From Elusimicrobiota bacterium (lineage in GTDB: Bacteria; Elusimicrobiota; Elusimicrobia; UBA1565): 64,000 bases of DNA. Every line of letters begins with the position of its first letter. Position 1 is the stretch's first letter. Positions 11,737 through 25,363 of the stretch are shown one piece after another. The notes under the pieces are model-generated. The model saw only the letters and a program-made list of their open reading frames with translations. It was not told where the DNA came from and did not search any database. A program made the translations under genes and the position numbers. Location of the stretch: the NCBI GenBank assembly GCA_043827405.1, contig JBDRPD010000105.1:1-64000 (forward strand), read 5' to 3'.

Positions 11737-13113
11737 TCAGCTCTGCTTGAACTGCGCCACCAGCGCCGAGATGCTCGCCTTGGCGTCGCCGAAGAGCATG
11801 CTCGTATTGTCGGAGACGAAGAGCGGATTGCCGACGCCCGCGAAGCCCGGGTTGAGGCTGCGCTTGAGCACGATGCAGGTCTTGGCCAGGTCGACGTTGA
11901 TGATCGGCATGCCCCACAAGGGGCTGTCCTTGTCGGTGCGCGCCGCCGGGTTGACGACGTCGTTGGCGCCGATCACCACCGCCACGTCGACGTTGTCGAT
12001 CGTCGGGTTGACGTCTTCCGGGACCACCAGCTGGTCGTAGGAGACGTTGGCTTCGGCCAGGAGCACGTTCATGTGTCCCGGCATGCGTCCCGCCACCGGA
12101 TGGATGACGTATTTGACCTCGGCGCCGTTCTCCTCGAGAAGCTCTCCGAGCTCGCGGACCACATGCTGGGCCTGGGCCACCGCCATGCCGTAGCCGGGGA
12201 CGAAAACCACCGAGCTCGCCGCTTCGAGGACCAAATAGGCGTCTTCGGCCGTCATCGGCTTATGGGTTCCTTTATACTTGGCGCCCTTCTTGGCGGTCGC
12301 GGCGGAGCCGAAGCCGCTGAACAGGACGTTGGCCAGGGAGCGGTTCATGGCCTTGCACATGATATTGGTCAGGATCAGCCCGCTCGCTCCGACCAGCGAT
12401 CCCGCCACGATCAGCACATTATTGAGGATGACGAAGCCGGCCGCGCAGGCCGCCAGGCCCGAGTAGCTGTTCAGGAGCGAAACCACCACCGGCATATCGG
12501 CCCCGCCGATGGGGATGACGGCCATGATGCCGAGCACGAAGGAGAGCCCGACGGATATGTAGAGAATATTGGCCGAGGCCGCCGGATTTTGGCAGAACAT
12601 CACGCCGCAGGCGATGGTGCCGAGCACCAGCAGGCCGTTGACGATATGCTGGCCGCTGAATACGGTGGGGCGGCCGTCGATGGTCTCGGAGAGCCGCAGG
12701 TAGGCCAGCACGCTGCCGGTGAAGGTTACGCCGCCGATCAGCACCGCGAAAAATACCGCCGCCGCGGTGAACAACGGCAAGCCCGGATTGGCGTTGAACT
12801 CGGCCCAGCCGACCAGCAGGCTGGCGAGGCCGCCTGAGCCGTTGAACAGCGCCACCATTTCCGGCATGGCCGTCATCTTGACCAGGCGCGCCGACACCGC
12901 GCCGATGACGCTGCCGATCAGGACGCCGATGATAATCCACTCAAAGGAGACGATATGGTGGTCGAAGAGCGTCACGCCCATGGCCAGGAGCATGCCGGCA
13001 GCCGACACCAAGTTGCCCTTGCGGGCCGTCTCGGCCCGGCTGAGCATCTTCAGGCCGAAGATGAACATCGCCGACGCCAGGATGTATGAGAAATCGATGA
13101 TCGCGGGGCTCAT
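11737..13113 (-). CDS. pntB: NAD(P)+ transhydrogenase subunit beta
   Basis: MTAMPEMVALFN, GGADMPVVVSLLNSYSG, PGYGMAVAQAQ, HPVAGRMPGHMNVLLAEA. Confidence 0.97.
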   Translation of the reverse strand: MSPAIIDFSYILASAMFIFGLKMLSRAETARKGNLVSAAGMLLAMGVTLFDHHIVSFEWIIIGVLIGSVIGAVSARLVKMTAMPEMVALFNGSGGLASLLVGWAEFNANPGLPLFTAAAVFFAVLIGGVTFTGSVLAYLRLSETIDGRPTVFSGQHIVNGLLVLGTIACGVMFCQNPAASANILYISVGLSFVLGIMAVIPIGGADMPVVVSLLNSYSGLAACAAGFVILNNVLIVAGSLVGASGLILTNIMCKAMNRSLANVLFSGFGSAATAKKGAKYKGTHKPMTAEDAYLVLEAASSVVFVPGYGMAVAQAQHVVRELGELLEENGAEVKYVIHPVAGRMPGHMNVLLAEANVSYDQLVVPEDVNPTIDNVDVAVVIGANDVVNPAARTDKDSPLWGMPIINVDLAKTCIVLKRSLNPGFAGVGNPLFVSDNTSMLFGDAKASISALVAQFKQS

Positions 13114-13400
13114 TTCTTTTCCTTCCCTTTCTTCTGTTTGAACATGGCCAGCATGCGGTCGGTCACCAGATAGCCGCCGACCACGTTGATCATGGCCGCG
13201 GCGACCGCCGTGGTTCCCAGCACCGTCTGCAGGGTGCCCGAGGCGAGGGATCCGGCGGCGAGCAAAGCGCCGACGATGGTGATTCCGGAGATGGCGTTGG
13301 AGCCCGACATCAGCGGCGTATGCAGCTGAGACGGAACCTTCGCGATGAGCTCGAAGCCCAAGAAAATCGCCAAGACGAAAACGAATATCAGCAGTCCCAT
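13110..13400 (-). CDS. pntAB: NAD(P)+ transhydrogenase subunit alpha, membrane part (alpha-2)
   Basis: LHTPLMSGSNAISG, NVVGGYLVTDRMLAMF. Confidence 0.95.
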   Translation of the reverse strand: MGLLIFVFVLAIFLGFELIAKVPSQLHTPLMSGSNAISGITIVGALLAAGSLASGTLQTVLGTTAVAAAMINVVGGYLVTDRMLAMFKQKKGKEKK

Positions 13401-13410
13401 GATCGCTCCT

Positions 13411-14562
13411 CTATTTTGCGCCCGCGGTCTCGGCCAGGAGTCCGCGGATGTCGGCGTTGCGTACCTCGCCCGCGTGCGTGAGCAGGCAGCCGTCGATGAT
13501 CTCGTCCTTCAGATCCAGCTTGAATTCCTTTTTTTCTTTGTCCCAAAAGTGCTCGATGAGGTTCGCCAGGTTGGCGGCGTACATCTCGCTGGCGGAGGTC
13601 GGCACCACGCCCGGGAGGTTGCGGGGGCCGAATACGCGCACGTCGTGGATGATCACCTCTTCTCCCGGCTTGGAGCCTTCGACGTTGCCCCCCGTCTCGG
13701 CGGCCATGTCGATGACCACGCTGCTGGGCTGCATGCCCTTGAGCATCTCGTCGGTGACCAGGAGCGGCGGCTTGCGGCCGAAGACCTGGGCGGTGGTGAT
13801 TACGATGTCGGACTGGGCGCAGATCTTGGCCATGCCCTCGCGCTGCTTGTTGATCTGCTCGGGGGTGAGCTGCTTGGCGTAGCCGTCGCGCGTCTGGCCG
13901 GTCTCGCCGAGGTCGATCTTGACGAACTTGGCGCCCAGCGACTTCACCTGCTCCTCGACCACCGGCCGGGTGTCGAAGGCCTCGACCCGCGCGCCCATGC
14001 GCTTGGCGGTGGCGATGGCCTGCAGGCCGGCGACGCCGACGCCGATGATGAAGACGCGGGCGGGCCGGATGGTGCCGGCGGGGGTCATCATCATGGGCAG
14101 GATCTTGTGGTGCTTCTCGGCGCCGATAACGACGGCGGCGTAGCCCGCCAGGTTGGCCTGCGAGCTGATGGCGTCCATCTTCTGCGCGATGGTCGAGCGC
14201 GGGATGAGCTCCATGCAGATGGCGCTGGCGCCGGCGTCGGCGAGGCGCTTGGTCAGTTCGGGGTAGGTAAAGGGCTCGAGGTAGCTGATATGGATCGCCC
14301 CCTTTTTTAGCTGGTCGATCTCTTCGTCCGGCGGCTTGCGCAGCCGCAGCACGATGTCGGCCTTGGCCAGCGCCTCTTTGCGGTTGGGCAGGATGACCGC
14401 TCCCGCCTGCTCGAACTCGGCGTCGGAGATAAGCAGGCTTGTACCGAGACCGGCTTCGATCTCGATCTCCACTCCCAGCTTGGTGAGTTTCTTGACGGCG
14501 TCCGGAGTCAGCGGAATCCGGGTCTCGCCTTGGGTGGTTTCTTTGGGGACGAAAATTTTCAT
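13411..14562 (-). CDS. pntAA: NAD(P)+ transhydrogenase subunit alpha, NAD-binding part (alpha-1)
   Basis: VPKET..GETR, AQKMDAISSQANLAGY, GVGVAGLQAIATAKRMGA, DMAAETGGN. Confidence 0.96.
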   Translation of the reverse strand: MKIFVPKETTQGETRIPLTPDAVKKLTKLGVEIEIEAGLGTSLLISDAEFEQAGAVILPNRKEALAKADIVLRLRKPPDEEIDQLKKGAIHISYLEPFTYPELTKRLADAGASAICMELIPRSTIAQKMDAISSQANLAGYAAVVIGAEKHHKILPMMMTPAGTIRPARVFIIGVGVAGLQAIATAKRMGARVEAFDTRPVVEEQVKSLGAKFVKIDLGETGQTRDGYAKQLTPEQINKQREGMAKICAQSDIVITTAQVFGRKPPLLVTDEMLKGMQPSSVVIDMAAETGGNVEGSKPGEEVIIHDVRVFGPRNLPGVVPTSASEMYAANLANLIEHFWDKEKKEFKLDLKDEIIDGCLLTHAGEVRNADIRGLLAETAGAK

Positions 14563-14637
14563 AGTTTAGGGCTCCCTTCAGCACCGATCGTATCGCGGTC
14601 GGACAGGATAACTAACTTTATCAATTTCGGGCAAGTA

Positions 14638-15168
14638 TCAAAATTGCGTTTTGGGATCGGACAGGTGGCACTGCCGGCAGCTGCTGCGCTCCGGGTGAGG
14701 GCTGCGCATGTTTTTATTCGGCTGTTCCGCGCCGTGGCAGACGCCGCATTTCTCGCGCAGAAACAGCCGGTGCGGAATCGCCGGCGGCGCCTTGGGGTGG
14801 GCGCGGCGTCCCGTACGCGGCTCTTTGAGACCGCGCCAGTTGGTCGCGACCGCGGCCGGCCGCTCGCCCGGAGGAGCGCTGCGTACGTGGCACTGCTGGC
14901 AGTTGGAGAACTCTGGGTGCGGCGTCTGGATGCTCACACGGTCGCCGAGATCCGTGACGTTTTCGTGGCAGCCGAGGCAGGTCTCGCTGCCCCGGTCAGC
15001 GATCTCATGCGGGATGACCGGCGGCGCGGTGTAGAAAGCACGCCGCTGGGCCCGCACCGGGTCGACCGGATCATCCTCGTCGGCGCCGAGCCCAGGCGTC
15101 GCCGCGAGCGCGGCCAGCCCGGCGCAGCCCATAACGGCCAGCAGGACGCGGCAGTTCCGGCTCATCAT
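14638..15168 (-). CDS. napB: NapB-like periplasmic cytochrome c with four CxxCH motifs
   Basis: Signal peptide; two PPxIPH units; CLGCH, CQQCH, CGVCH, CRQCH; ATGA overlap with napA stop. Confidence 0.8.
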   Translation of the reverse strand: MMSRNCRVLLAVMGCAGLAALAATPGLGADEDDPVDPVRAQRRAFYTAPPVIPHEIADRGSETCLGCHENVTDLGDRVSIQTPHPEFSNCQQCHVRSAPPGERPAAVATNWRGLKEPRTGRRAHPKAPPAIPHRLFLREKCGVCHGAEQPNKNMRSPHPERSSCRQCHLSDPKTQF

Positions 15169-17510
15169 GCTCGTTCCACCTTGACCGCGCACTTCTTGTA
15201 GTCGGGCTCCTTGGAGAACGGATCCCAGGCGTCGAGCGTCACCTGGTTGATGAGGCGGCCCTCGTCGAAGAAGGGCACAAAGACCAGACCCTTCTGCGGC
15301 ACGCTGCGCTCATCGATGGAAGCCGGCAGGACGATCTCGCCGCGGCGGGAGGCGACGCGGACCTCGTCGCCGCCGCGGATGCCGAGACGCGCGGCGTCCG
15401 CGGGATGCAGCTCCACGTACGCCCGCGGCATCGCGTTGTTAAGCTGGGGGACCCGCCGCGTCATCGTGCCCGTGTGCCAGTGCTCGATAACGCGGCCGGT
15501 GCACAGCCAGAAGGGATAGTTCTTGTCCGGCATTTCCGGCGGGTCCTCGTAGGGGCGGGCGTAGACAATGGCGCGCTGGTCCCCGGCCTTGGCCATATAG
15601 AAGGAAACGCCGTCGTCCTTTTTCACGTAGGGATCCTCGCCCTCGACGAAGCGCCGCTTGGTCTCGCGCCACGCGCCGGCGGCGTCCTGGACCACGGGCC
15701 AGCGCAGGCCGCGGTTCTCGACGTAGACGTCGTAGGGGGCGAGGTCCTTGTGCTTGAGGGTGGTAAAGCGCCGGTACTCCTCGAACAGGATCTTGTCGAT
15801 GTTGTGCTTCTTGAATTCGCTCCACTTCCAGGCTTCGATCTCGCGCCCCTTCTCGTCGCGTACCGTGAGCAGGAAGCCGCCGTCGCGGTCGCGCATGCCA
15901 GCGAAGCCCTTGTCGTAGAGGCGGCGCGCGACGGCGAGCAGCTGCCAGACGTCGTCGCGGGCGTCTCCCGGGGGTTCGATCATCTTGAACCATTGCTGGG
16001 TGCGCCGTTCGGTATTGCCGAACACACCGTTCTTCTCCACCCAGCCGGCCGAGGGCAGGACCACGTCGGCGAGCTCGGTGGTCACCGTCGGGTAGATGTC
16101 GGAGACCACCAGGAACCGGTCGCGCGCGGCCCGCATGTTCTCGTTGAGGTTGGGGATGGTCTGGGCGGGATTGGTCACCTGCACCCACATCCCGGTCAGC
16201 CCGCCGGATGCCAGCTCCTGGAACATCTGGACGGCGTGAAAGCCCGGTTTGGGGTTGAGCGCACCCGGTTGGGTGCGCCAGACGTCCTCGGTGAACTTGC
16301 GGTGCGCTGGGTCGTTGACAACGCGGCCGCCGGGCAGGGCGTGCGCCAGCGTCCCCACCTCGCGGCAGGTGCCGCAGGCGCTGGGCTGGCCGGTGAGCGA
16401 GAGCGGCGTGCTGCCCGGCTTGCCGATCTTGCCCGCGAGCAGGTGCACGTTGTAGACCAGGTTATTGATCGCCGTGCCGCGCGTATGCTGGTTCATCCCC
16501 ATGCACCACAGCGAGACCACTTTCCGCTCGGGATCGGCGAACTGGTCGGCCAGCACTTCCAGCTGCTTGACCGACAGTCCGGACCGCTGCGCCACCTGCT
16601 CCGGGGAGTAGTCCTCCAGGAAGCGCCGGTAGTCAGCGAAGCTGATGTCCTTTTCCTCGTTCGACTTGAAGCGCACGCGCTTTTCCACAAAGGCATTGTC
16701 GTAGGCGCCGCGCTTGAGCAGGATGTGGCAGATACCATTGGCGATTGCGAGGTCGGTTTGCGGAACAAACTCCATATAGTGATCGGCTGCTTCCGAGGTG
16801 CGGGTGCGGCGCGTAGCGAGATCGATCATGGTGACGGCGTCACCCTTGCTCTTGCGGTCGATGAAGCGCGAGAACAGGATGGGATGCATCTCGGCCCAGT
16901 TGTTGCCCCAGCAGATCACGGTGTCGCAGGTGTCGAGATCGTCGTAGCAGCCGGAGGGCTCATCCACGCCGAAGGTTTTGATGAAGCCGACGACCGCGCT
17001 CGCCATGCACAGTCGGGCGTTGGGATCGATGTGATTGCTGCCGAGCCCGCCCTTGAGGAATTTCATCGCGGTATAGCCTTCAATGACCGTCCACTGGCCC
17101 GAGCCGTAGACCGCGAAGCGTTCGGGGTCGGCGATAATCCTGTCGGCGATGAGGTCGATCGCCTGGTCCCAACTCGCCGGCGTCAGCTTGTCGTTTTTGC
17201 GGATCAGGGGGCGCGTCAGACGGTCGGGGCCGTAGAGGGCGGCGCCGGCGCTGTAGCCTTTGATGCAGAGCAGGCCCTTATTGACGGGGTTCTTGCGGTC
17301 GCCCTGTACGGCGACGATGCGGCCGTCCTTGACGCCCACCAGGGAGCCGCAGCCGGTGCCGCAGAATCGGCAGGGGGCTTTATGCCAGGACAGCCCGTCG
17401 CTGCCGAGGCGCTCGGCCGCAGCTTCGGCCGGCGCCGAGCTCAGGGCGGCCAGGGCCGCCGCTTGCGCGGAAAGCTTCAGGAACTGTCTACGCGTCAGGG
17501 ATTTTCTCAT
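15165..17510 (-). CDS. napA: Periplasmic nitrate reductase catalytic subunit
   Basis: Tat signal TRRQFLK; CRFCGTGC; DPNARLCMASAV (Mo-ligand Cys); NQHTRG; LTGQPSACG; SKEPDYKKCAVK. Confidence 0.95.
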   Translation of the reverse strand: MRKSLTRRQFLKLSAQAAALAALSSAPAEAAAERLGSDGLSWHKAPCRFCGTGCGSLVGVKDGRIVAVQGDRKNPVNKGLLCIKGYSAGAALYGPDRLTRPLIRKNDKLTPASWDQAIDLIADRIIADPERFAVYGSGQWTVIEGYTAMKFLKGGLGSNHIDPNARLCMASAVVGFIKTFGVDEPSGCYDDLDTCDTVICWGNNWAEMHPILFSRFIDRKSKGDAVTMIDLATRRTRTSEAADHYMEFVPQTDLAIANGICHILLKRGAYDNAFVEKRVRFKSNEEKDISFADYRRFLEDYSPEQVAQRSGLSVKQLEVLADQFADPERKVVSLWCMGMNQHTRGTAINNLVYNVHLLAGKIGKPGSTPLSLTGQPSACGTCREVGTLAHALPGGRVVNDPAHRKFTEDVWRTQPGALNPKPGFHAVQMFQELASGGLTGMWVQVTNPAQTIPNLNENMRAARDRFLVVSDIYPTVTTELADVVLPSAGWVEKNGVFGNTERRTQQWFKMIEPPGDARDDVWQLLAVARRLYDKGFAGMRDRDGGFLLTVRDEKGREIEAWKWSEFKKHNIDKILFEEYRRFTTLKHKDLAPYDVYVENRGLRWPVVQDAAGAWRETKRRFVEGEDPYVKKDDGVSFYMAKAGDQRAIVYARPYEDPPEMPDKNYPFWLCTGRVIEHWHTGTMTRRVPQLNNAMPRAYVELHPADAARLGIRGGDEVRVASRRGEIVLPASIDERSVPQKGLVFVPFFDEGRLINQVTLDAWDPFSKEPDYKKCAVKVERA

Positions 17511-17754
17511 CGTTCTGTTCTCCTGCGGCGTCTTCGAAGTTGTGATAGACCAGGTCGACTTGGACGACTCCTGGGATGCGCTCGATGCTCTTCCATACCG
17601 ACTTGTCTTCAGCGGGGAGCGAGGAGTCGGTAACTACCACCAGGTTCTCACCTTTTGCGTCGGTGACTTCGGCATGCGGGAGTTCGTTGATGGCGCGGCG
17701 GACTTTCTCGGTGCTGGCGCACTGGGTGCGGACGATGAGACTGGATATTGACAT
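17488..17754 (-). CDS. napD: NapD Tat-proofreading chaperone
   Basis: 88 aa, MSISSLIV...LVVVTD...[12 protein letters not shown], directly upstream of napA. Confidence 0.9.
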
Positions 17755-17761
17755 ATATCAA
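17748..17761. promoter_or_regulatory. FNR/Crp-type box overlapping the napD start codon
   Basis: TTGAC-ATAT-ATCAA, one mismatch to TTGAT-N4-ATCAA. Confidence 0.5.
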
Positions 17762-17810
17762 ATACGCTATTCGTCAATTCAAGCAATTTCCCGGCCGGGT
17801 GTCGAGCGGT

Positions 17811-18131
17811 CTAGCGTATCATCTTCAGCTGCTCGGTGGCGACGGTTTTAATAACCGTCTCGCAGCAGCCGAAGAACTTGAGGATGCAGGGGACTCTGAG
17901 GGAATAGAAGACCTGATTGCCGCGCTTTTCGGCGGCGACAATGCCGGCGTTTTTGAGCAGCGTCAGGTGCTTGGATACCGTGGAGATATCGGCGCCGACG
18001 ATCTCGGTCAGGTCGCGCACGCAGCGTTCTTTTTCCGCCAAGGCGTCCACCATGCACAGGCGCGCCGGATGGGCCATCGCTTTCACGATCCGGGCGCGGG
18101 CTTCGAACTGGGCGCGGGTCTTGCCGTTCAT
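17811..18131 (-). CDS. arsR: ArsR/SmtB-family metalloregulator
   Basis: [33 protein letters not shown]-terminal C-x6-CC; divergent from acr3. Confidence 0.9.
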
Positions 18132-18137
18132 TTGTCT

Positions 18138-18157
18138 ATTTGGTATTATAGCCAAAT
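18138..18157. promoter_or_regulatory. Inverted-repeat operator enclosing divergent -10 elements (arsR / acr3-hgcAB)
   Basis: ATTTGG-TATTATAG-CCAAAT; the spacer reads TATTAT on + and TATAAT on -. Confidence 0.65.
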
Positions 18158-19355
18158 GATGGGCGAAGAGCAATCCGACGCCAAGGGGCTGGGCTTCTTC
18201 GAGCGCTACCTGACGCTGTGGGTGCTGCTGTGCATCGCCGGCGGAATCCTCCTGGGCAAGCTCGCGCCGGGCTTCGCCGCCCGGCTCGACGGCATGGCCG
18301 TCTATGTCGGCGCTGCCCCAGTGGTTTCAATTCCCATCGCCGTCTGCCTGTTCTTCATGATGTATCCCATTATGGTTAAGATCGATTTCGGCGAGGTGCT
18401 GCAGGCCGGACGCAGCATTAAGCCCGTGGGCTTGACCTTGCTCATCAACTGGGCGATCAAGCCGTTCACCATGTACGCGATCTCGACGTTTTTTCTCGGC
18501 ACGCTGTTTCTCGGCTTCATCGGGCCGGATGCGGTCGATCTGGTCAAGATGCCGCTCGGGCTCAACCTTGATGCGGGCGCGGCCTACGGCGCCGGCCGCG
18601 TCGTCATGGAGGGCGGCGTCAAGATGCTGGAGGTCCCGTTGTGGCGCAGCTACCTGGCCGGCTGCATCCTTCTCGGCATCGCCCCCTGCACCGCCATGGT
18701 TCTGGTCTGGGGCTATCTGGCGAAAGGCAATGACGGGCATACTTTGGTCATGGTCGCGATCAACTCCTTGGCCATGCTCTTTCTTTTTGGTCCGCTCGGC
18801 GGCTTTCTTCTCGGCGTCGGCCGCCTGCCGGTTCCCTGGCAGGCGCTGCTGCTGTCGATCGGGATCTACGTCGCGCTGCCTCTGGTCGCGGGCTACTTCT
18901 CGCGCCGGTGGATCATCGCCGCCAAGGGCGAGGTCTGGTTCAAAGAGAAGTTCCTGCAGGTGCTGACGCCGGTGACCATCTCGGCGCTCTTGATTACTCT
19001 GGTCCTGCTGTTTTCCTTCAAAGGAGAGGTGATCCTTTCCAATCCCCTCACGATAGTGTGGATCGCGGTGCCGTTGTTTCTCCAGACCGTTCTGATCTTC
19101 GCTCTCGGCTACGCGCTGGCGAAAGTTTTCAAACTCTCCTACCGCGACGCCGCTCCTTCGGCCATGATCGGCGCCTCGAACCATTTCGAGGTCGCGATCG
19201 CCACCTCGACCATGCTCTTCGGGCTTTCCTCTGGAGCGGCGCTGGCCACCGTGGTCGGAGTCCTCATTGAGGTTCCGCTCATGCTCATGCTGGTGCGCTT
19301 CTGCCTGCGGACGGATAAATGGTTTGCGACGGAAACACCGTCACCTCTGAATTGA
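18156..19355 (+). CDS. acr3: Acr3-family arsenite efflux transporter
   Basis: [60 protein letters not shown]. Confidence 0.95.
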
Positions 19356-20251
19356 GCCGGGCGGATATGCTCGGCTCGTGGAAGGCGCGCTGGGGCGTTA
19401 ACCGCATGCGCTACAAGGTCTGCCCCGGGCTGCGCACGCTGGGCAGTCCCGGAAAGGATTCCCCCGTCCTGGTATCGGCCAACTACAAGATGAGCTTTGA
19501 CCGCTTGCGCGCGGCGCTGGCGGGGCGCGATGCCTGGATTCTCGTGCTCGACACCCAGGGGATCAATGTCTGGTGCGCGGCCGGCAAAGGCACCTTCGGC
19601 ACCGATGAGCTCGTCGCCAGAATTGAGCAGCATAAGCTGTCGGAAGTCGTATCTCATAAGACGGTCATCGTGCCGCAATTGGGCGCACCCGGGGTCTCCG
19701 GCTATGCGGTGACCAAGCGCACGAGGTTTAAGGTGATTTTCGGCCCGGTGCTCGCGGCGGACCTGCCGGCATTCCTGGATGCCGGCATGAGGGCGACGCG
19801 GGAGATGCGCCGGGTGAAGTTCGATTTATGGGACCGTGCCGTCCTCGTCCCCATGGAGCTCGTGGGCTGGGGCAAGTATGTCCTGCCGCTTTGCTTGCTG
19901 CTGTATTTCGCCGGCGGATGGATATACGCGCTGCCGGGGCTAATTGCGCTCCTGGCCGGCGCGGTGTTGGGACCGCTGCTGCTGCCCTATCTTCCGGGGC
20001 GGAGTTTCTCGGCCAAAGGCGCTTGGACCGGCCTGGCTTGCGCCGTCGCCGCCGCGCACGCAGCGCGGCTGCCGGGGATGCCGGCGGCGGCATGGGTATT
20101 GATCATCACGGCGCTGTCGTCTTTCATGACGGCGTATTTCACCGGCTGCTCTACCTACACGTCTCTGTCCGGGGTGCGCAAGGAGCTTCGCTTCGCTGTT
20201 CCGCTGCAGGGGAGCGCCGCTCTAATCGGGCTGGTGCTGCTGTTCCTATGA
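19319..20251 (+). CDS. hgcA: Mercury methylation corrinoid protein
   Basis: Cap-helix motif [34 protein letters not shown]-terminal TM helices; [16 protein letters not shown]. Confidence 0.96.
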
Positions 20252-20544
20252 CCCGGCACCGATACCTAAGCGGCGTCTCCACGCTCGCGCTCGACGCGGC
20301 GAAGTGCACGGGCTGCGGCTTCTGCCTTGACGTCTGCCCGCATGAGGTCTTCCAGTTGGCGGACAAGAAGGCCGTCATCGCCGATCTCGACGCCTGCATG
20401 GAGTGCGGAGCCTGCGCGCTTAACTGCCCGACGCAGGCGCTCTTGGTTGAGTCCGGCGTCGGCTGCGCCCAGGCCATCGTCAAAGGCGCCGTTACCGGCA
20501 CCGAGCCCACCTGCGGCTGCGAGAATAAGCCGGACTGCTGCTAG
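20248..20544 (+). CDS. hgcB: Mercury methylation 2x[4Fe-4S] ferredoxin
   Basis: CTGCGFCLDVCP, CMECGACALNCP, GVGCA, C-terminal CGC...CC; ATGA overlap with hgcA. Confidence 0.96.
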   Translation: MTRHRYLSGVSTLALDAAKCTGCGFCLDVCPHEVFQLADKKAVIADLDACMECGACALNCPTQALLVESGVGCAQAIVKGAVTGTEPTCGCENKPDCC

Positions 20545-20771
20545 GAGCTCCCCTCCTGCGGCTGCGCAGGCAGCTCGACTTGCTGCTTGCGGTCCCTCCG
20601 CACCGACTGCGAAAATAAGTCCGTCTATTTTTCGTTACCTGTCTCCCGTGACTTCGGATTGCGGAGGTCTTAAGGGCGCACTTTGAAGTTGAGCTTGTAC
20701 TGGGCCCGGGCCCAGTTGTTTCTGCTGAAATTACTTGTTCTTTTTTTTGATAATTTTCAGGGAACTAATAT

Positions 20772-21881
20772 GTGACGTACTCGTATGTAGCAGGTATGGT
20801 GAACGGGTATGGCGAAGTCAGTTCGGGCATCGATCTCGCTGCTCTGTCGGATAAGGCCTTGCTGGCGTCGCTCAAGCGCTTGGTCGCCGAGGAGCGCGTC
20901 CGTACCGTCGACGTGCTGCGGCATCTCGCGGAGGCGGATCGGCGTCGGGCATATGAACCGGAAGCGTTTCCGAGCCTGTTCAGCTACTGCGTGCGGGAGC
21001 TCGGTTTTTCCGAGGAGCAGGCGTATCGCCGAATTCGGGTTGCGCGCGAAGGAAGGGATTACCCGGTGATCTTTTCAATGCTCGAGCGCGGGGAAATCTC
21101 GCTTACGGTGGTTGCCTTGTTGGCGCCGCACCTGGGGCGTGAGAATTACAGTCGGCTTCTCAAGCAGGCCGCGGGCAAGACGCGGCGTGAGGTCGAGCGC
21201 ATTATCTCCTCGCTCGCACCGAAGCCTGAACCCAGCGACCGCGTGCGATATTTAGGGACACGACGAGCGGCGAGTCAGGCATTGACGCCGGCTTCATCCG
21301 AGCCGTCCGCACAGAGGATGTTCCTGGAGGCTGGCGGCGAACTTGTGTCGAAGTCCGGTGATGCCGAGATCGAAATAATAGATAGCAGATCGGCAGAGAG
21401 TGGGTCGGCGGAGAGCGGGTCGGCGGAGAGTAGGCCGGCAGATAGCAGATCGGCAGAGGGCAAGCCGGCAGATAGCAGATCGGCAGAGAGCAAGCCTGCT
21501 GATAGCAGATCGGCAGAGAGCAAGCCGGCAGATAGCAGATCAACAGAGGGCAAGCCGGCAGATAGCAGATCGGCAGAGAGCAAGCCTGCAGATAGCAGAT
21601 CGGCAGCGAGCGGGTCGGCGGAGAGCGGGAAAAGTGAAGCTGCTGCGATGAATGCTCATGAGCAGGGATTGTCCCAGCGCGTTTGTCTTAAGTTCGCCGC
21701 CGATGAGAGCCTGCTGGTTAAGCTGCGCCGCGCACGGGAGCTGCTTTTCCATAAGTATCCTTCGGGGCGCCTGGAATTTTTGGTCGGGCAGGCGCTGGAG
21801 GATTTACTGGAGAAGCGAGACCCAGAGCATCGGCTCGCGCGGCTGGCGAATAGGAAACGCCGCGCGCGGGACCGGCCGTAA
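20772..21881 (+). CDS. DUF222-like protein (N-terminal part of HNH-associated family) with internal tandem repeats; no HNH domain; start uncertain
   Basis: LSDKALL..LKRLVAEER...HLAEADRRR...SLFSYCVRELGFSEEQAYRRI; C-terminal KLRRARELLFHKYP; no C-x2-C or HNH motif before the stop. Confidence 0.6.
   Translation: MTYSYVAGMVNGYGEVSSGIDLAALSDKALLASLKRLVAEERVRTVDVLRHLAEADRRRAYEPEAFPSLFSYCVRELGFSEEQAYRRIRVAREGRDYPVIFSMLERGEISLTVVALLAPHLGRENYSRLLKQAAGKTRREVERIISSLAPKPEPSDRVRYLGTRRAASQALTPASSEPSAQRMFLEAGGELVSKSGDAEIEIIDSRSAESGSAESGSAESRPADSRSAEGKPADSRSAESKPADSRSAESKPADSRSTEGKPADSRSAESKPADSRSAASGSAESGKSEAAAMNAHEQGLSQRVCLKFAADESLLVKLRRARELLFHKYPSGRLEFLVGQALEDLLEKRDPEHRLARLANRKRRARDRP
21381..21629 (+). 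repeat. In-frame 30-bp tandem repeat (about DSRSAESKPA) with 15-bp subunits
   Basis: GATAGCAGAT at 21381, 21441, 21471, 21501, 21531, 21561, 21591; flanking 15-bp units encode SAESG. Confidence 0.95.
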
Positions 21882-22018
21882 GGCGGGCGGTGTGCTTAGC
21901 CGCTGCTAGGCGGCGGTCAGGGTGTTCCCAAAAGTTTTACATAATATGTATTATCAAGCCGTACTATCGGTTTTTCGATAGTGACGACGAAAGCCTTTTT
22001 TACCGGCGGAGGGCTCAC

Positions 22019-23266
22019 TTGGCCGTCATAACGATTTTTCATGCCTCCCGTTGCCACGGGAATGAGGTCGCTGATGCCGTGGCGAAGCAGACTGGTTGTG
22101 AGCGCATCGAGGACCGGCTGTTCGCGGACGCTTCCCGCCGGTTCCAGGTATCCAAAGAGAAGCTTCTCGGGGCGATGACCGGCCCCGCCCCCTTCTGGAA
22201 CAGATTTACGCACGAGCGGGAGAAGAACTTGGCCCGGTTAAGGGTCGTTCTCGCCGACTTGGTGGCGGATGATTCCAAGCTGCTCGTCGGCCTCGCCGCG
22301 CACCTTGTTCCCCGCGACCTGGCGCATGTCCTGCGGGTATGCGTCGTCGCCAATTTCGGGTACCGGGTTCGGCAAGCCGCGCTGGAGACGGGGAAGGCCG
22401 AGAACGAGGTCTCCGAGCTCCTGCGCGGTGAGGACGCTGAACTCCTGGAATGGACGCGCTACCTTTACGAAAAACCCCCCTACGAGGAAGAGCTCTACGA
22501 TCTCGTGGTTCCGATGCAGGACCAATCCGTTGCCGCGGCCGCCGGGCTCATCTGCGAGCAGGCGAAGAGTTCGTCCGTAGCGGTGACCGAAGTCTCCCGC
22601 GTCGCCGCGCGTGATTTCCAGCTGGCGGCCTTGGTGGGGCTGGAACTGGCGCAGGCGAATCATGATGTCGATGTGCGTGCCCGCCACGGCGAGATCACCA
22701 TCGCGCTCAAGCAGCATGTCCTGATGATGGCGCAGTACCAGCGGGAACTGCGGGGGATCGCGGAGAAAGTTTCCGGAGTCGACGGCGTGAAGTTCGGCTT
22801 CGCTCCGCGGTACAAGGCGCCCGCCATCAATACCATGTCCAATGTGGAGCTGCCGCCGAAGATCCTGCTCGTCGATGACGAAAAGGACTTTGTGCAGACT
22901 GTTTCGGAGCGGCTCAAAACGCGCAATCTCGACTCCTCCGTCGTCTACAATGGACAGCAGGCGCTGGACTATGTCGAGAGTGATCAGCCGGATGTGGTGG
23001 TCGTCGATTTGATGATGCCCGGCATCGGCGGTATCGAGGTCCTGCGCCGGATCAAGAAGACTCACCCGAACATCGAGGTTATCGTCCTGACCGGTCATGG
23101 TTCGGAGCAGGAGGAGCGCCTGGCCGCTGAGCTTGGGGCCTTCGCGTACCTGCAGAAGCCGGTTAATATCGACATCCTCGCGCGCACCATGCGTGAGGCC
23201 TATCAGAAGGTGAACGAGACCAGGGCGAAGTCTCCGCCGGACGCTCGGGATCGAGAGGCGCAATGA
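22019..23266 (+). CDS. Cytidylate-kinase-like + BON-like + C-terminal receiver domain protein
   Basis: TTG start after GGAGGG; AVITIF, HVLRVCVVA, YDLVV; receiver LLVDDE, VVDLMMPG, LTGHGS, YLQKP. Confidence 0.8.
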   Translation: MAVITIFHASRCHGNEVADAVAKQTGCERIEDRLFADASRRFQVSKEKLLGAMTGPAPFWNRFTHEREKNLARLRVVLADLVADDSKLLVGLAAHLVPRDLAHVLRVCVVANFGYRVRQAALETGKAENEVSELLRGEDAELLEWTRYLYEKPPYEEELYDLVVPMQDQSVAAAAGLICEQAKSSSVAVTEVSRVAARDFQLAALVGLELAQANHDVDVRARHGEITIALKQHVLMMAQYQRELRGIAEKVSGVDGVKFGFAPRYKAPAINTMSNVELPPKILLVDDEKDFVQTVSERLKTRNLDSSVVYNGQQALDYVESDQPDVVVVDLMMPGIGGIEVLRRIKKTHPNIEVIVLTGHGSEQEERLAAELGAFAYLQKPVNIDILARTMREAYQKVNETRAKSPPDARDREAQ

Positions 23267-24978
23267 CGTCCTCCGAAGCGCCGCAGGAGAAGGAGGCGCG
23301 GTCCACGCTGGCCGGCGGGACCGTCGGCAAGGTGCTGCGGTATCAGCATCTGTGGCTGACCTCCGTCATCGTGACCTCGTTGGTGGCCATTACGCCGCTG
23401 CTTATCATGGCGGCGTTCGACTACTCCCATAATCGCGCGGCAGGCCGCGTTGAAAGCCAGCTGACGATAAACCGTCTGCTGGGGACCACTAAGCGCAGCC
23501 TTGAGGACGCGATTCGGGAGCGCCGCGAGGTCCTCTCTCTGCTTCTCATCGAGAGGTCGCATTCGGAGTTGACACAGAAGGCGGCGCTGTCCCGTACGCT
23601 CGCCCACCTGCAGGACACCTTCGGCGGCTTCGTCGATCTCGGCCTGATCGACTCGGGCGGCAAGCAGATCGCGTACGCCGGACCGTTCGATCTCAAGGGC
23701 AAGAACTATAAAGACCAGGATTGGTTCCATGCGACGCGGCTCAAGGGCGTCTATGTCAGCGACGTGTTTAAGGGGTTTCGAAACTTCCCCCACTTCGTGA
23801 TCGCGCTGCAGAAGAAGAAGGGCGCCGATGATTTTTTTATCCTGCGCGCGACGTTGGATATGGAGCTCATTAACCGGCGCATCTACGACCTGAATCTCGA
23901 CCGCGATACGGATGCGTTTATTATTAATCAGGACGGCGTGCTGCAGACCGACTCGGCGCTCTACGGCGCCGCGCTCACCCGGATCGATATCCGCGTCCCG
24001 TCCCGTTCGCGCAGCACCGACGTCGTCGACGAACGTCTCCAGGACGGCTCATGGCTTACCTCGGGTTTCGCCTATATCGAGGACGCTCCCTACATCTTCG
24101 TTGTCGTTAAGCGGCAGCGCAATCCTCTGTGGGTGTGGCTGGGCCATCGGTCCACGATGTTCTGGTTCCTCGGCGCCAGTATTATCGTCATTCTCGCCGT
24201 CGGGTTCTTTAGCTCGACCTGGATCGTCAAGCGCCTCGGCAAGGCGGACGCGGAACGCGCCCGCGAGCTGCATGATCTCGAGTACACCAATAAGCTGGCG
24301 ACCATCGGCCGCATGGCGGCCACGGTCGCCCATGAGATCAACAACCCCCTGGCGATCATCGAGGAGAATGCGGGGCTGCTCAAAGATATGGCGACGTTTT
24401 CCGCGGGGCATCCGCAAAAGGAAAAGACGCTCAAGCTTGTTGAGCTAATACACAAGTCGGTGGCGCGCTGCAGTGATGTGACCCATCGGCTGCTTGGTTT
24501 TGCCAAGCGCATGGATATCCAGCGCGAGCCGATTGCCCTCGATAAGCTGCTTGAGGAAGTCGCCAGCTTCCAGAAGACCGAGGCCCTGCACCGGAACATC
24601 AAGATCGATTTCGCCTTGCCGGATTCGCTCCCCCCCGTTATCGGCGACCGCGGGAAGCTGCAGCAGGTGTTTCTCAATATCATCAGCAACGCTTTGTCCG
24701 CGGTGGACGACGGGGGTCGGATTCAGATTGAGGTGGCTCAGCTGGACGCTACGCATGCGTCGGTGATGGTCACTGATAACGGGAGCGGTATCGGTCAAAA
24801 GGATCTGAAGCATATTTTCGAGCCCTTCTATTCGACCAAGGGAGAGTTCGGAACGGGGTTGGGGCTTTCCATTACCCGCGATATCGTCACCAAGTTGGGC
24901 GGTACGATAGAGGTGCAAAGCGAGGTCGGCAGCGGCACAAGCTTTATCGTGACCTTGCCTATCCAGGGGAAAGTGTGA
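23263..24978 (+). CDS. Membrane sensor histidine kinase (Cache-like domain)
   Basis: 2 TM; YVSDVFKGFR; KLATIGRMAATVAHEINNPL; DNGSG; FEPFYSTK; GTGLGLSI. Confidence 0.92.
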   Translation: MTSSEAPQEKEARSTLAGGTVGKVLRYQHLWLTSVIVTSLVAITPLLIMAAFDYSHNRAAGRVESQLTINRLLGTTKRSLEDAIRERREVLSLLLIERSHSELTQKAALSRTLAHLQDTFGGFVDLGLIDSGGKQIAYAGPFDLKGKNYKDQDWFHATRLKGVYVSDVFKGFRNFPHFVIALQKKKGADDFFILRATLDMELINRRIYDLNLDRDTDAFIINQDGVLQTDSALYGAALTRIDIRVPSRSRSTDVVDERLQDGSWLTSGFAYIEDAPYIFVVVKRQRNPLWVWLGHRSTMFWFLGASIIVILAVGFFSSTWIVKRLGKADAERARELHDLEYTNKLATIGRMAATVAHEINNPLAIIEENAGLLKDMATFSAGHPQKEKTLKLVELIHKSVARCSDVTHRLLGFAKRMDIQREPIALDKLLEEVASFQKTEALHRNIKIDFALPDSLPPVIGDRGKLQQVFLNIISNALSAVDDGGRIQIEVAQLDATHASVMVTDNGSGIGQKDLKHIFEPFYSTKGEFGTGLGLSITRDIVTKLGGTIEVQSEVGSGTSFIVTLPIQGKV

Positions 24979-24991
24979 TGGGACAGCGGTG

Positions 24992-25363
24992 ATGGACAAC
25001 AGTTTGCGGATGCTTGTGATCGACGACGAGGAGGACTTGGTGACGGCATTGGTCGAGCGTCTCGGTTATCGGGGCATCGAGGCGGAGTATGCCCTGGATG
25101 GGCGAACGGCGCGCGAGAAGCTCGAAACGAATAGCTACGATATCGTCATCCTCGATCTGAAGCTCCCGGGAGAAAGCGGCGCCGAACTTCGCGATAGTAT
25201 CGCGCGGAAATATCCCGAGCTCCCGATCCTGATGATAACGGGCCATGGCGCGCACCCCGAGAGCCCGGGCTCGCCTCCGCTGCCGGGAGGTACCGTGCTG
25301 GAGAAGCCGGTTAACCTGGATGTCCTCATCGAGAAAGCGCGCGAAATGGCGAAGAAGCGCTAG
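24992..25363 (+). CDS. Single-domain response regulator
   Basis: VIDDEE, ILDLKLPG, ITGHG, EKPV. Confidence 0.88.
   Translation: MDNSLRMLVIDDEEDLVTALVERLGYRGIEAEYALDGRTAREKLETNSYDIVILDLKLPGESGAELRDSIARKYPELPILMITGHGAHPESPGSPPLPGGTVLEKPVNLDVLIEKAREMAKKR

Follow-up and report, generated by a model that had tools for sequence, protein, structure and literature searches.

Why does the gene pair for mercury methylation, hgcA and hgcB, lie directly behind an arsenite efflux gene? This question is raised by a four-gene locus, arsR and acr3-hgcA-hgcB, on contig JBDRPD010000105.1 of an Elusimicrobiota bacterium (GCA_043827405.1), of which positions 1 to 64,000 were analysed (the window). The native function of HgcAB determines where the genes for methylmercury formation are retained and expressed, and the locus, with 24 bp of control sequence, a single pump and methylating pair and an arsM-free genome, is a compact test case. 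On our reading acr3, hgcA and hgcB probably form one ArsR-repressed, arsenic-inducible operon, which would be transcribed from a bidirectional promoter in the gap between acr3 and arsR. The features are located in the window as follows:

17811..18131, minus strand (18131->17811): arsR, ArsR/SmtB repressor, 106 amino acids
18121..18149, plus strand: predicted acr3-hgcA-hgcB promoter, TTGCCG-17-TATTAT with extended TG; predicted start ~18156 (the acr3 ATG, leaderless)
18138..18157, no strand: palindrome ATTTGG-N8-CCAAAT, predicted ArsR operator; core TTGGY-N6-RCCAA at 18140-18155
18145..18173, minus strand: predicted arsR promoter, TTGCTC-17-TATAAT; predicted start ~18138, 7 nucleotides (nt) before the arsR ATG
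18156..19355, plus strand: acr3, arsenite efflux transporter, 399 amino acids, ATG ATG start
19319..19355, plus strand: overlap of acr3 and hgcA, 37 nt
19319..20251, plus strand: hgcA, corrinoid protein, 310 amino acids; cap helix at 19565-19588
20248..20544, plus strand: hgcB, 2[4Fe-4S] ferredoxin, 98 amino acids, with Cys73 and a terminal Cys-Cys
20699..20716, plus strand: terminator-like hairpin 3' of hgcB, weak (5 such sites versus 4.0 in shuffles)

All four gene products score above the curated cut-offs of their families: ArsR with 83 bits against NF033788 (ArsR/SmtB; cut-off 55), Acr3 with 367 bits against TIGR00832 (cut-off 282.8; profile positions 1-327 of 327 covered), HgcA with 411 bits against NCBIfam NF040863 (cut-off 275) and HgcB with 122 bits against NCBIfam NF040864 (cut-off 99). 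Against NF043039, which stands for a fused HgcAB-like form, HgcA reaches 199 bits and stays under the cut-off of 285. An earlier reading of the same DNA, in the following the original prediction, had described a head-to-head gap of 24 bp between arsR and acr3 (18132-18155), the 37-nt overlap and an ATGA overlap of hgcA and hgcB, all of which we find at the same coordinates. It had also named the HgcA cap helix and the HgcB motif CMECGAC, and both are present, the former as NVWCAAGK (residues 83-90) and the latter as one of two CxxCxxCxxxCP motifs, together with Cys73 and the terminal pair Cys97 and Cys98; these are the residues of HgcA and HgcB that are called essential in PMC11588087, according to which HgcAB also uses S-adenosylmethionine (SAM). 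Judged by its sequence, HgcAB is thus a true member of the SAM- and cobalamin-dependent mercury-methylation family, and we take mercury methylation as established family chemistry, without presuming that arsenic is methylated too. The membrane domain of HgcA is short; damage to this domain was considered and dropped, since the short form is common to other Elusimicrobia HgcAs. Acr3 belongs to the long subtype, shares 75-83% identity with the 80 closest relatives from metagenomes and is encoded by the only acr3 of the genome. Genome G000 has 15 matches to B12-binding domains and no cobS match, which makes it probable that HgcA's corrinoid is imported. On a further contig it encodes a MerA-like flavoprotein (G000:C87:21767-23125; 401 bits, under the cut-off of 454).

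The gap between arsR and acr3 is predicted to be a bidirectional, near-leaderless promoter. The -10 hexamers of the two strands overlap and the 20-bp palindrome covers both of them, which places an inverted repeat over the promoter, as in ArsR-regulated ars operons at the sequence level. The predicted starts, each set seven bases beyond its -10, are 18 bp apart, and 18 bp is the commonest start spacing at bidirectional promoters (PMC12825309). The A/T-cored palindrome occurs twice in the 4.33-Mb genome, each time before the gene of an ArsR paralogue, namely here and on contig C54, where the promoter TTGACA-17-CATAAT has the same layout with its -10 likewise covered by the box. Of 12 related arsR genes (at least 45% identity, upstream sequence present) 10 have a variant of the box in front of them, as against none among 38 of lower identity; the pattern was drawn up after three of the 12 had been seen, and 7 of the 9 unseen genes fit. 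Enrichment by count was rejected as an argument for the operator: TTGGY-N6-RCCAA has 3 matches and other spacer lengths have 2-20, so that only the locations are informative, and the third match (C46:20975) was discarded because it lies inside a ribosomal-protein gene. From this arrangement we infer that ArsR binds at 18138-18157. A sister ArsR group, at L093, L094 and L095, has another recognition helix and another palindrome upstream (TGAGT-N-ACTCA type).

The paralogue on C54, to which the ArsR of the locus is 60% identical, heads an operon of a permease gene and arsE-arsF-arsG, i.e. homologues of the organoarsenical-resistance proteins ArsE, ArsF and ArsG. The permease is presumably ArsP, a label for which the profile scan gave no ArsP family match. 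It is because of these genes under the box, and not because of the Cys motif, that an arsenical can be put forward as inducer, As(III) or possibly methylarsenite, MAs(III), or else Sb(III), which would be sensed via Cys37/82/89/90. ArsR would accordingly sit on the palindrome and keep the two overlapping promoters shut until it is released by a trivalent arsenical; the pump and hgcA-hgcB would then be made from one leaderless transcript starting at ~18156, within which hgcB would be translated by termination-reinitiation from hgcA, and HgcAB would come under arsenic control at the position that related genomes give to arsM. A single ArsR-controlled acr3-hgcA-hgcB transcript, as claimed originally, is the best reading of the locus, as the only promoter-like site of 18100-19330 is that in the gap, where it lies under a conserved ArsR-type box. 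The further claim that methylmercury output should be arsenite-inducible is an over-reach, as in Pseudodesulfovibrio mercurii ND132 the rates of methylation were decoupled from the arsenic-raised transcription of hgcA.

Several observations weigh against the arsenic-controlled operon. The -35 elements fit the consensus in only 4 of 6 positions on the plus strand and 3 of 6 on the minus strand, and a divergent arsR directly before acr3 was found at none of 60 related loci with enough upstream sequence, so that the exact layout is unconserved. No RNA piece spans acr3-hgcA-hgcB: run X5 gave two 151-nt pieces, both within acr3 (with 0 and 3 differences, respectively), and neither X7 nor X8 gave any over 13000-25000, which speaks neither for nor against co-transcription. 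Concerning the sensor, ArsR has cysteines at positions 26, 37, 82, 89 and 90, of which Cys82 and Cys89 are present in 14 of 14 clade members; Cys39, present in 12 of the 14, is lost here. The site C32/C34/C37 of R773 is absent, as ERCVRDL retains only the first Cys, and so is the four-Cys site of ND132 ArsR2, since there is no CxC pair. With such a non-canonical Cys set ArsR may sense another signal or respond weakly.

In an alternative to this operon, expression ignores arsenic, either because acr3 contains a separate promoter for hgcAB or because ArsR is unresponsive. Besides the Cys pattern, it can draw on the many metals that ArsR/SmtB proteins sense (10.1101/2022.10.17.512643) and on a weak Shine-Dalgarno-like GGACGG ahead of ATG19319, owing to which the translation of hgcA need not be coupled. 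An internal acr3 promoter was also what the original prediction had named as its refutation; however, the consensus scan of 18100-19330 found no promoter-like site besides that in the gap and none inside acr3, where it has to be considered that such scans assume sigma-70 and may miss an internal promoter. Moreover, the box also heads the organoarsenical-resistance-homologue operon, and the acr3 under it is the only one of the genome. We regard arsenic-independent expression as improbable and hold to the ArsR-controlled operon.

How far this ArsR resembles characterised As(III) sensors can be judged from the described sites, which are C32/C34/C37 in R773, C95/C96/C102 in AfArsR, C15/C16/C55 in CgArsR and C41/C80/C82 in ArArsR, with SpArsR as a further example (PMC11868830; PMC13236881). 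In common with these are the ArsR/SmtB fold, an autoregulatory box over the promoter and at least three Cys residues, one of them at the position of Cys32 in R773, whereas no described site is matched exactly: the spacing C82-x6-C89-C90 differs from those of AfArsR, CgArsR and ArArsR. ArArsR may be nearest in logic, with a Cys in an N-terminal loop and Cys near the wing. A sequence search of the PDB gave no close ArsR, the best match being Rv0081 (E 4.5e-14), and a single-sequence structure model was left unused at a pLDDT (score of the predicted local distance difference test) of 47. To the CxC-type ArsRs of other hgcA loci the protein is ~39% identical.

Translational coupling was claimed for both junctions and is probable at one of them. 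Measured against the geometry of termination-reinitiation (-1, -4 or -8 nt, or a very short gap), the ATGA of hgcA and hgcB fits and coupling is likely there, whereas acr3 and hgcA stand at -37 with ATG19319 as hgcA start or at -4 with TTG19352 (TTGA). According to PMC10666635, overlaps of -10 to -60 nt are ~4x rarer than short ones, although one of 34 nt, in phage fr, is given there as a case of reinitiation. The 37-nt figure depends on ATG19319, and TTG19352 or ATG19367, which lies 11 nt past the acr3 stop, are possible as starts. ATG19319 is the first in-frame start past a stop and is formed across the codons for Lys and Trp in the tail of Acr3, where Trp-Phe is frequent among relatives. 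It is favoured because HgcA residues in or just past the overlap are conserved among the 107 homologues (V8 in 67, L12 in 79, D16 in 104). A hairpin at 19353-19376 buries ATG19367; the mRNA folds around the starts, with z-scores of -1.7 to +0.9, are not decisive. Run X3, which belongs to another study (P3) than the possible source run X1, has a 151-nt contig that covers 19246-19396 with 0 differences, so the acr3/hgcA junction is not an assembly artefact; X1 itself matches the locus in two pieces, likewise with 0 differences.

If hgcAB is under arsenic control, it can be asked whether it takes the place of another arsenic gene. According to the original prediction HgcAB occupies the slot normally held by arsC or arsM, and for arsM this agrees with the host's lineage: arsM lies directly behind acr3 in 5 of 6 arsM-bearing genomes of the host's order, and in family f5 it lies between an arsR-arsP block and (arsC-)acr3 in all 13 fetched arsM operons (13 of 18), where 11 ars-linked hgcA loci are without arsM. 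For arsC it does not hold, because arsC mostly lies upstream of acr3 (16 of 21 related acr3 loci having arsC) and beside hgcAB in 14 of the 26 fetched hgcA loci of the phylum; the arsC slot was dropped in view of this frequent co-occurrence. In the host genome (completeness 98%) the best arsM match reaches 53 bits against a cut-off of 263 (NF008823; 23 of 23 candidates scored), and an arsC-like gene stands by itself on C54. HgcA and HgcB themselves gave no ArsM family match in the profile search.

Within the phylum arsM exceeds the cut-off in 47 of 401 genomes (6 candidates scored per genome), and hgcA is present in 26 of the 401, none of which has such an arsM. Among the 138 genomes bearing acr3 (E 1e-50 or better; 14 weaker of 152 rows excluded), arsM was found in 0 of 24 with hgcA versus 45 of 114 without (Fisher p 2.5e-5), and within genera of this set 0 genomes with both were observed versus 5.75 expected (p about 1e-4). 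Inclusion of ArsM-like matches below the cut-off gives 3 of 24 versus 58 of 114 (p 4e-4), and when genomes are not required to bear acr3, p rises to 0.035 (strict) or 0.17 (lenient). These p-values make the exclusion look stronger than it is, as kin share operons; the hgcA genes of the phylum form roughly 5-6 clades on the HgcA tree, which would give about 0.05-0.08 (0.61 raised to the power of 5 or 6). In a class of the Planctomycetota the direction is the same and not significant (1 of 6 with hgcA versus 117 of 225 without; p 0.10). Both genes occur together in G005, the one genome of the host's family to have both and with an hgcA that is not ars-linked, in G421 and at L013, where hgcAB is followed by an ArsM-like gene that has the three conserved Cys motifs.

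At L220 (G234), arsR-hgcA-hgcB is followed by an ArsM-like gene under the cut-off (245 bits), in which Ala replaces the Cys of the GCGNP-type motif and the two later Cys motifs are kept. At L007:2462-3706 (G025), a radical SAM gene (TIGR04317, 282 bits versus 380) lies between acr3 and hgcA, at the position where G036 of the same genus has arsM. At L009:2457-2951 (G005), a Cys-rich regulator-like open reading frame (ORF) overlaps the hgcA start; it has no NCBIfam match at 1e-10 and may be a MarR protein.

The survey of synteny that had been proposed confirmed that hgcA and acr3 are linked in the phylum: acr3 is present within 18 of the 26 fetched loci, which represent 25 of the 26 hgcA genomes plus G005. 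Overlaps of acr3 and hgcA recur at L049 (8 nt), L228 (26 nt), L233 (11 nt) and L238 (8 nt), all with another Acr3 subtype; L240 was unscorable and is left out of the count. In 11 of 12 loci of family f5, hgcAB and a run arsR-(hesB-like)-arsC-acr3 with another ArsR point away from each other, and a gap palindrome around TATTATA is present in 10 of 11 ars-linked hgcA loci (one read by eye), which points to the same promoter design with two ArsR clades and two boxes. On a quick HgcA tree of 109 rows the host protein groups with Elusimicrobia HgcAs and host-class genomes (Shimodaira-Hasegawa-like approximate likelihood ratio test, 94-95), in keeping with Elusimicrobiota as the likely phylum of the host. 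An acr3 upstream of hgcA requires 7-8 changes on this tree, and a single origin of all acr3-hgcA junctions is thus unsupported. In wider samples the linkage is much looser. Among the nearest 80 of 573 GTDB hgcA loci, 60 of them with at least 2 kb upstream, acr3 is in the fetched flanks of 6, and at the 80 nearest metagenome acr3 loci hgcA comes next in 2, an arsM-like gene lies upstream in 11 and downstream in 4, and an arsC-like gene upstream in 16 and downstream in 5 (39 of 70 downstream candidate ORFs scanned). Where at least 1 kb of downstream sequence is present (60 loci), the gene after this Acr3 subtype is arsM in 3, arsC-like in 3, arsE in 3 and hgcA in 2. Before the nearest HgcA, which has no ars neighbours, lies what we take to be a nucleotidyltransferase-HEPN-like gene pair (L023:5152-5878). 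Toxin-antitoxin genes have been described before archaeal hgcA (PMC10349881).

What HgcAB does under such control can be read in two ways; our probabilities for the readings of this locus refer to separate steps and do not add up to one. A borrowed promoter has a serious chance, somewhat below even: a mobile hgcAB would have landed at a variable position of the ars operon and would use its promoter for chemistry unrelated to arsenic, and arsM would be absent because of the operon versions that hgcAB entered. This agrees with the changing gene behind Acr3, with the 7-8 changes on the tree, with the nearest HgcA (L023) lying apart from ars genes, with the 6 acr3-flanked loci among those nearest 80 of 573, and with a preprint that proposes halomethane dehalogenation as the native activity of HgcAB (10.64898/2026.04.26.720869). 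However, ars operons were entered repeatedly and independently, and the entries differ in ArsR clade, Acr3 subtype and geometry (two of each), which suggests that control by arsenic was selected for; in family f5 hgcAB lies on the opposite side of arsR from the arsM of L256 and L260, and yet arsM is gone; and the ND132 knockout of hgcAB was more sensitive to As(V) (10.1101/2022.10.17.512643).

We consider it unlikely that HgcAB is instead an arsenic methyltransferase of a second kind, dependent on cobalamin and present in ars operons in place of ArsM, methylating As(III)/MAs(III) from SAM with mercury as a side reaction, in which case an arsenic-switched, bidirectional and ArsR-boxed promoter would have evolved at least twice in the phylum. 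It would follow from this logic that hgcAB enters ars operons without arsM, and the near-exclusion among acr3-bearing genomes, the arsM slot in the host's order and in f5, the arsM-free host genome, the direction in the Planctomycetota class and the use of SAM by HgcAB all point this way. But the exclusion shrinks to about 0.05-0.08 under kin dependence and fades without the acr3 condition, G005, G421 and L013 have both genes, and arsM has been reported near hgcAB (PMC7438021). Moreover, ND132, which has hgcAB and no arsM, made no detectable mono- or dimethylarsenicals, and its hgcAB knockout was not more sensitive to As(III) (10.1101/2022.10.17.512643). Near-exclusion, promoter and overlaps together make a role in place of ArsM more probable without establishing it. 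The hgcA and arsM operon versions within the same genera are natural pairs for comparison. If only the regulation is true, arsenic in groundwater would raise hgcAB transcription here, beyond one sulfate reducer; if HgcAB does replace ArsM, one enzyme serves both the arsenic and the mercury cycle.

Both flanks of the locus hold further genes. Downstream of hgcB, at 20772-21881 on the plus strand of the window, lies a 369-aa ORF with a tandem 10-residue repeat, which has no Pfam or NCBIfam match and one paralogue on C84 (43%). On the other side, within 14638-17810 on the minus strand, napD-napA and a c-type cytochrome gene follow 56 bp past the arsR end. Since they are on the same strand as arsR and a scan of the minus strand in 14500-20900 gave no terminator-like site, the arsR transcript could run into the nitrate reductase operon. 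A box at 17748-17761 over the napD start is presumably of the FNR/Crp-like type.

The linkage of hgcAB to ars genes and its induction by arsenic are already published, and the report of such neighbours on which the original prediction relied is borne out: McDaniel et al., 2020 (PMC7438021) describe hgcAB flanked by acr3, arsC, arsM and arsR in methylator genomes, Peterson et al., 2025 (PMC11984097) describe likewise ars-flanked hgcAB with lower hgcA expression behind arsR, and ars genes are present on 4 of 35 hgcAB contigs in PMC10349881. The bidirectional boxed promoter, the recurring acr3/hgcA overlaps and the near-exclusion of arsM are additions of this study; a literature search that covered few subscription papers found no paper on an acr3/hgcA coding overlap or on hgcA/arsM exclusion. 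The loci of McDaniel et al. and Peterson et al. resemble ours in that hgcAB adjoins acr3 and an ArsR-like regulator, and Elusimicrobia are already among their hgcA carriers, whereas an acr3 coding overlap, a shared bidirectional promoter with operator and the exclusion of arsM are not described in the accessible parts of these papers. With the bidirectional promoters of PMC12825309 the gap shares overlapping -10s, starts 18 bp apart and a repressor set against an efflux pump, as in acrR/acrAB; here the promoters are predicted from sequence, and their two transcripts would have little or no leader. The closest functional parallel is arsR2-hgcA-hgcB of ND132, where Gionfriddo et al. (10.1101/2022.10.17.512643) found that arsenic induces the transcription of hgcAB and also of ars operons, and where hgcA induction did not reliably lead to more methylmercury. 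Common to both are the control by an ArsR-family protein and a genome without arsM, while the arsenic-induced transcription is that of ND132. ArsR2 is co-directional with and directly upstream of hgcA, has the CxC pairs 47/49 and 86/88 and, as far as described, no ars gene beside it, whereas here ArsR is divergent, carries Cys37/82/89/90 and has acr3 as the first gene between itself and hgcA.

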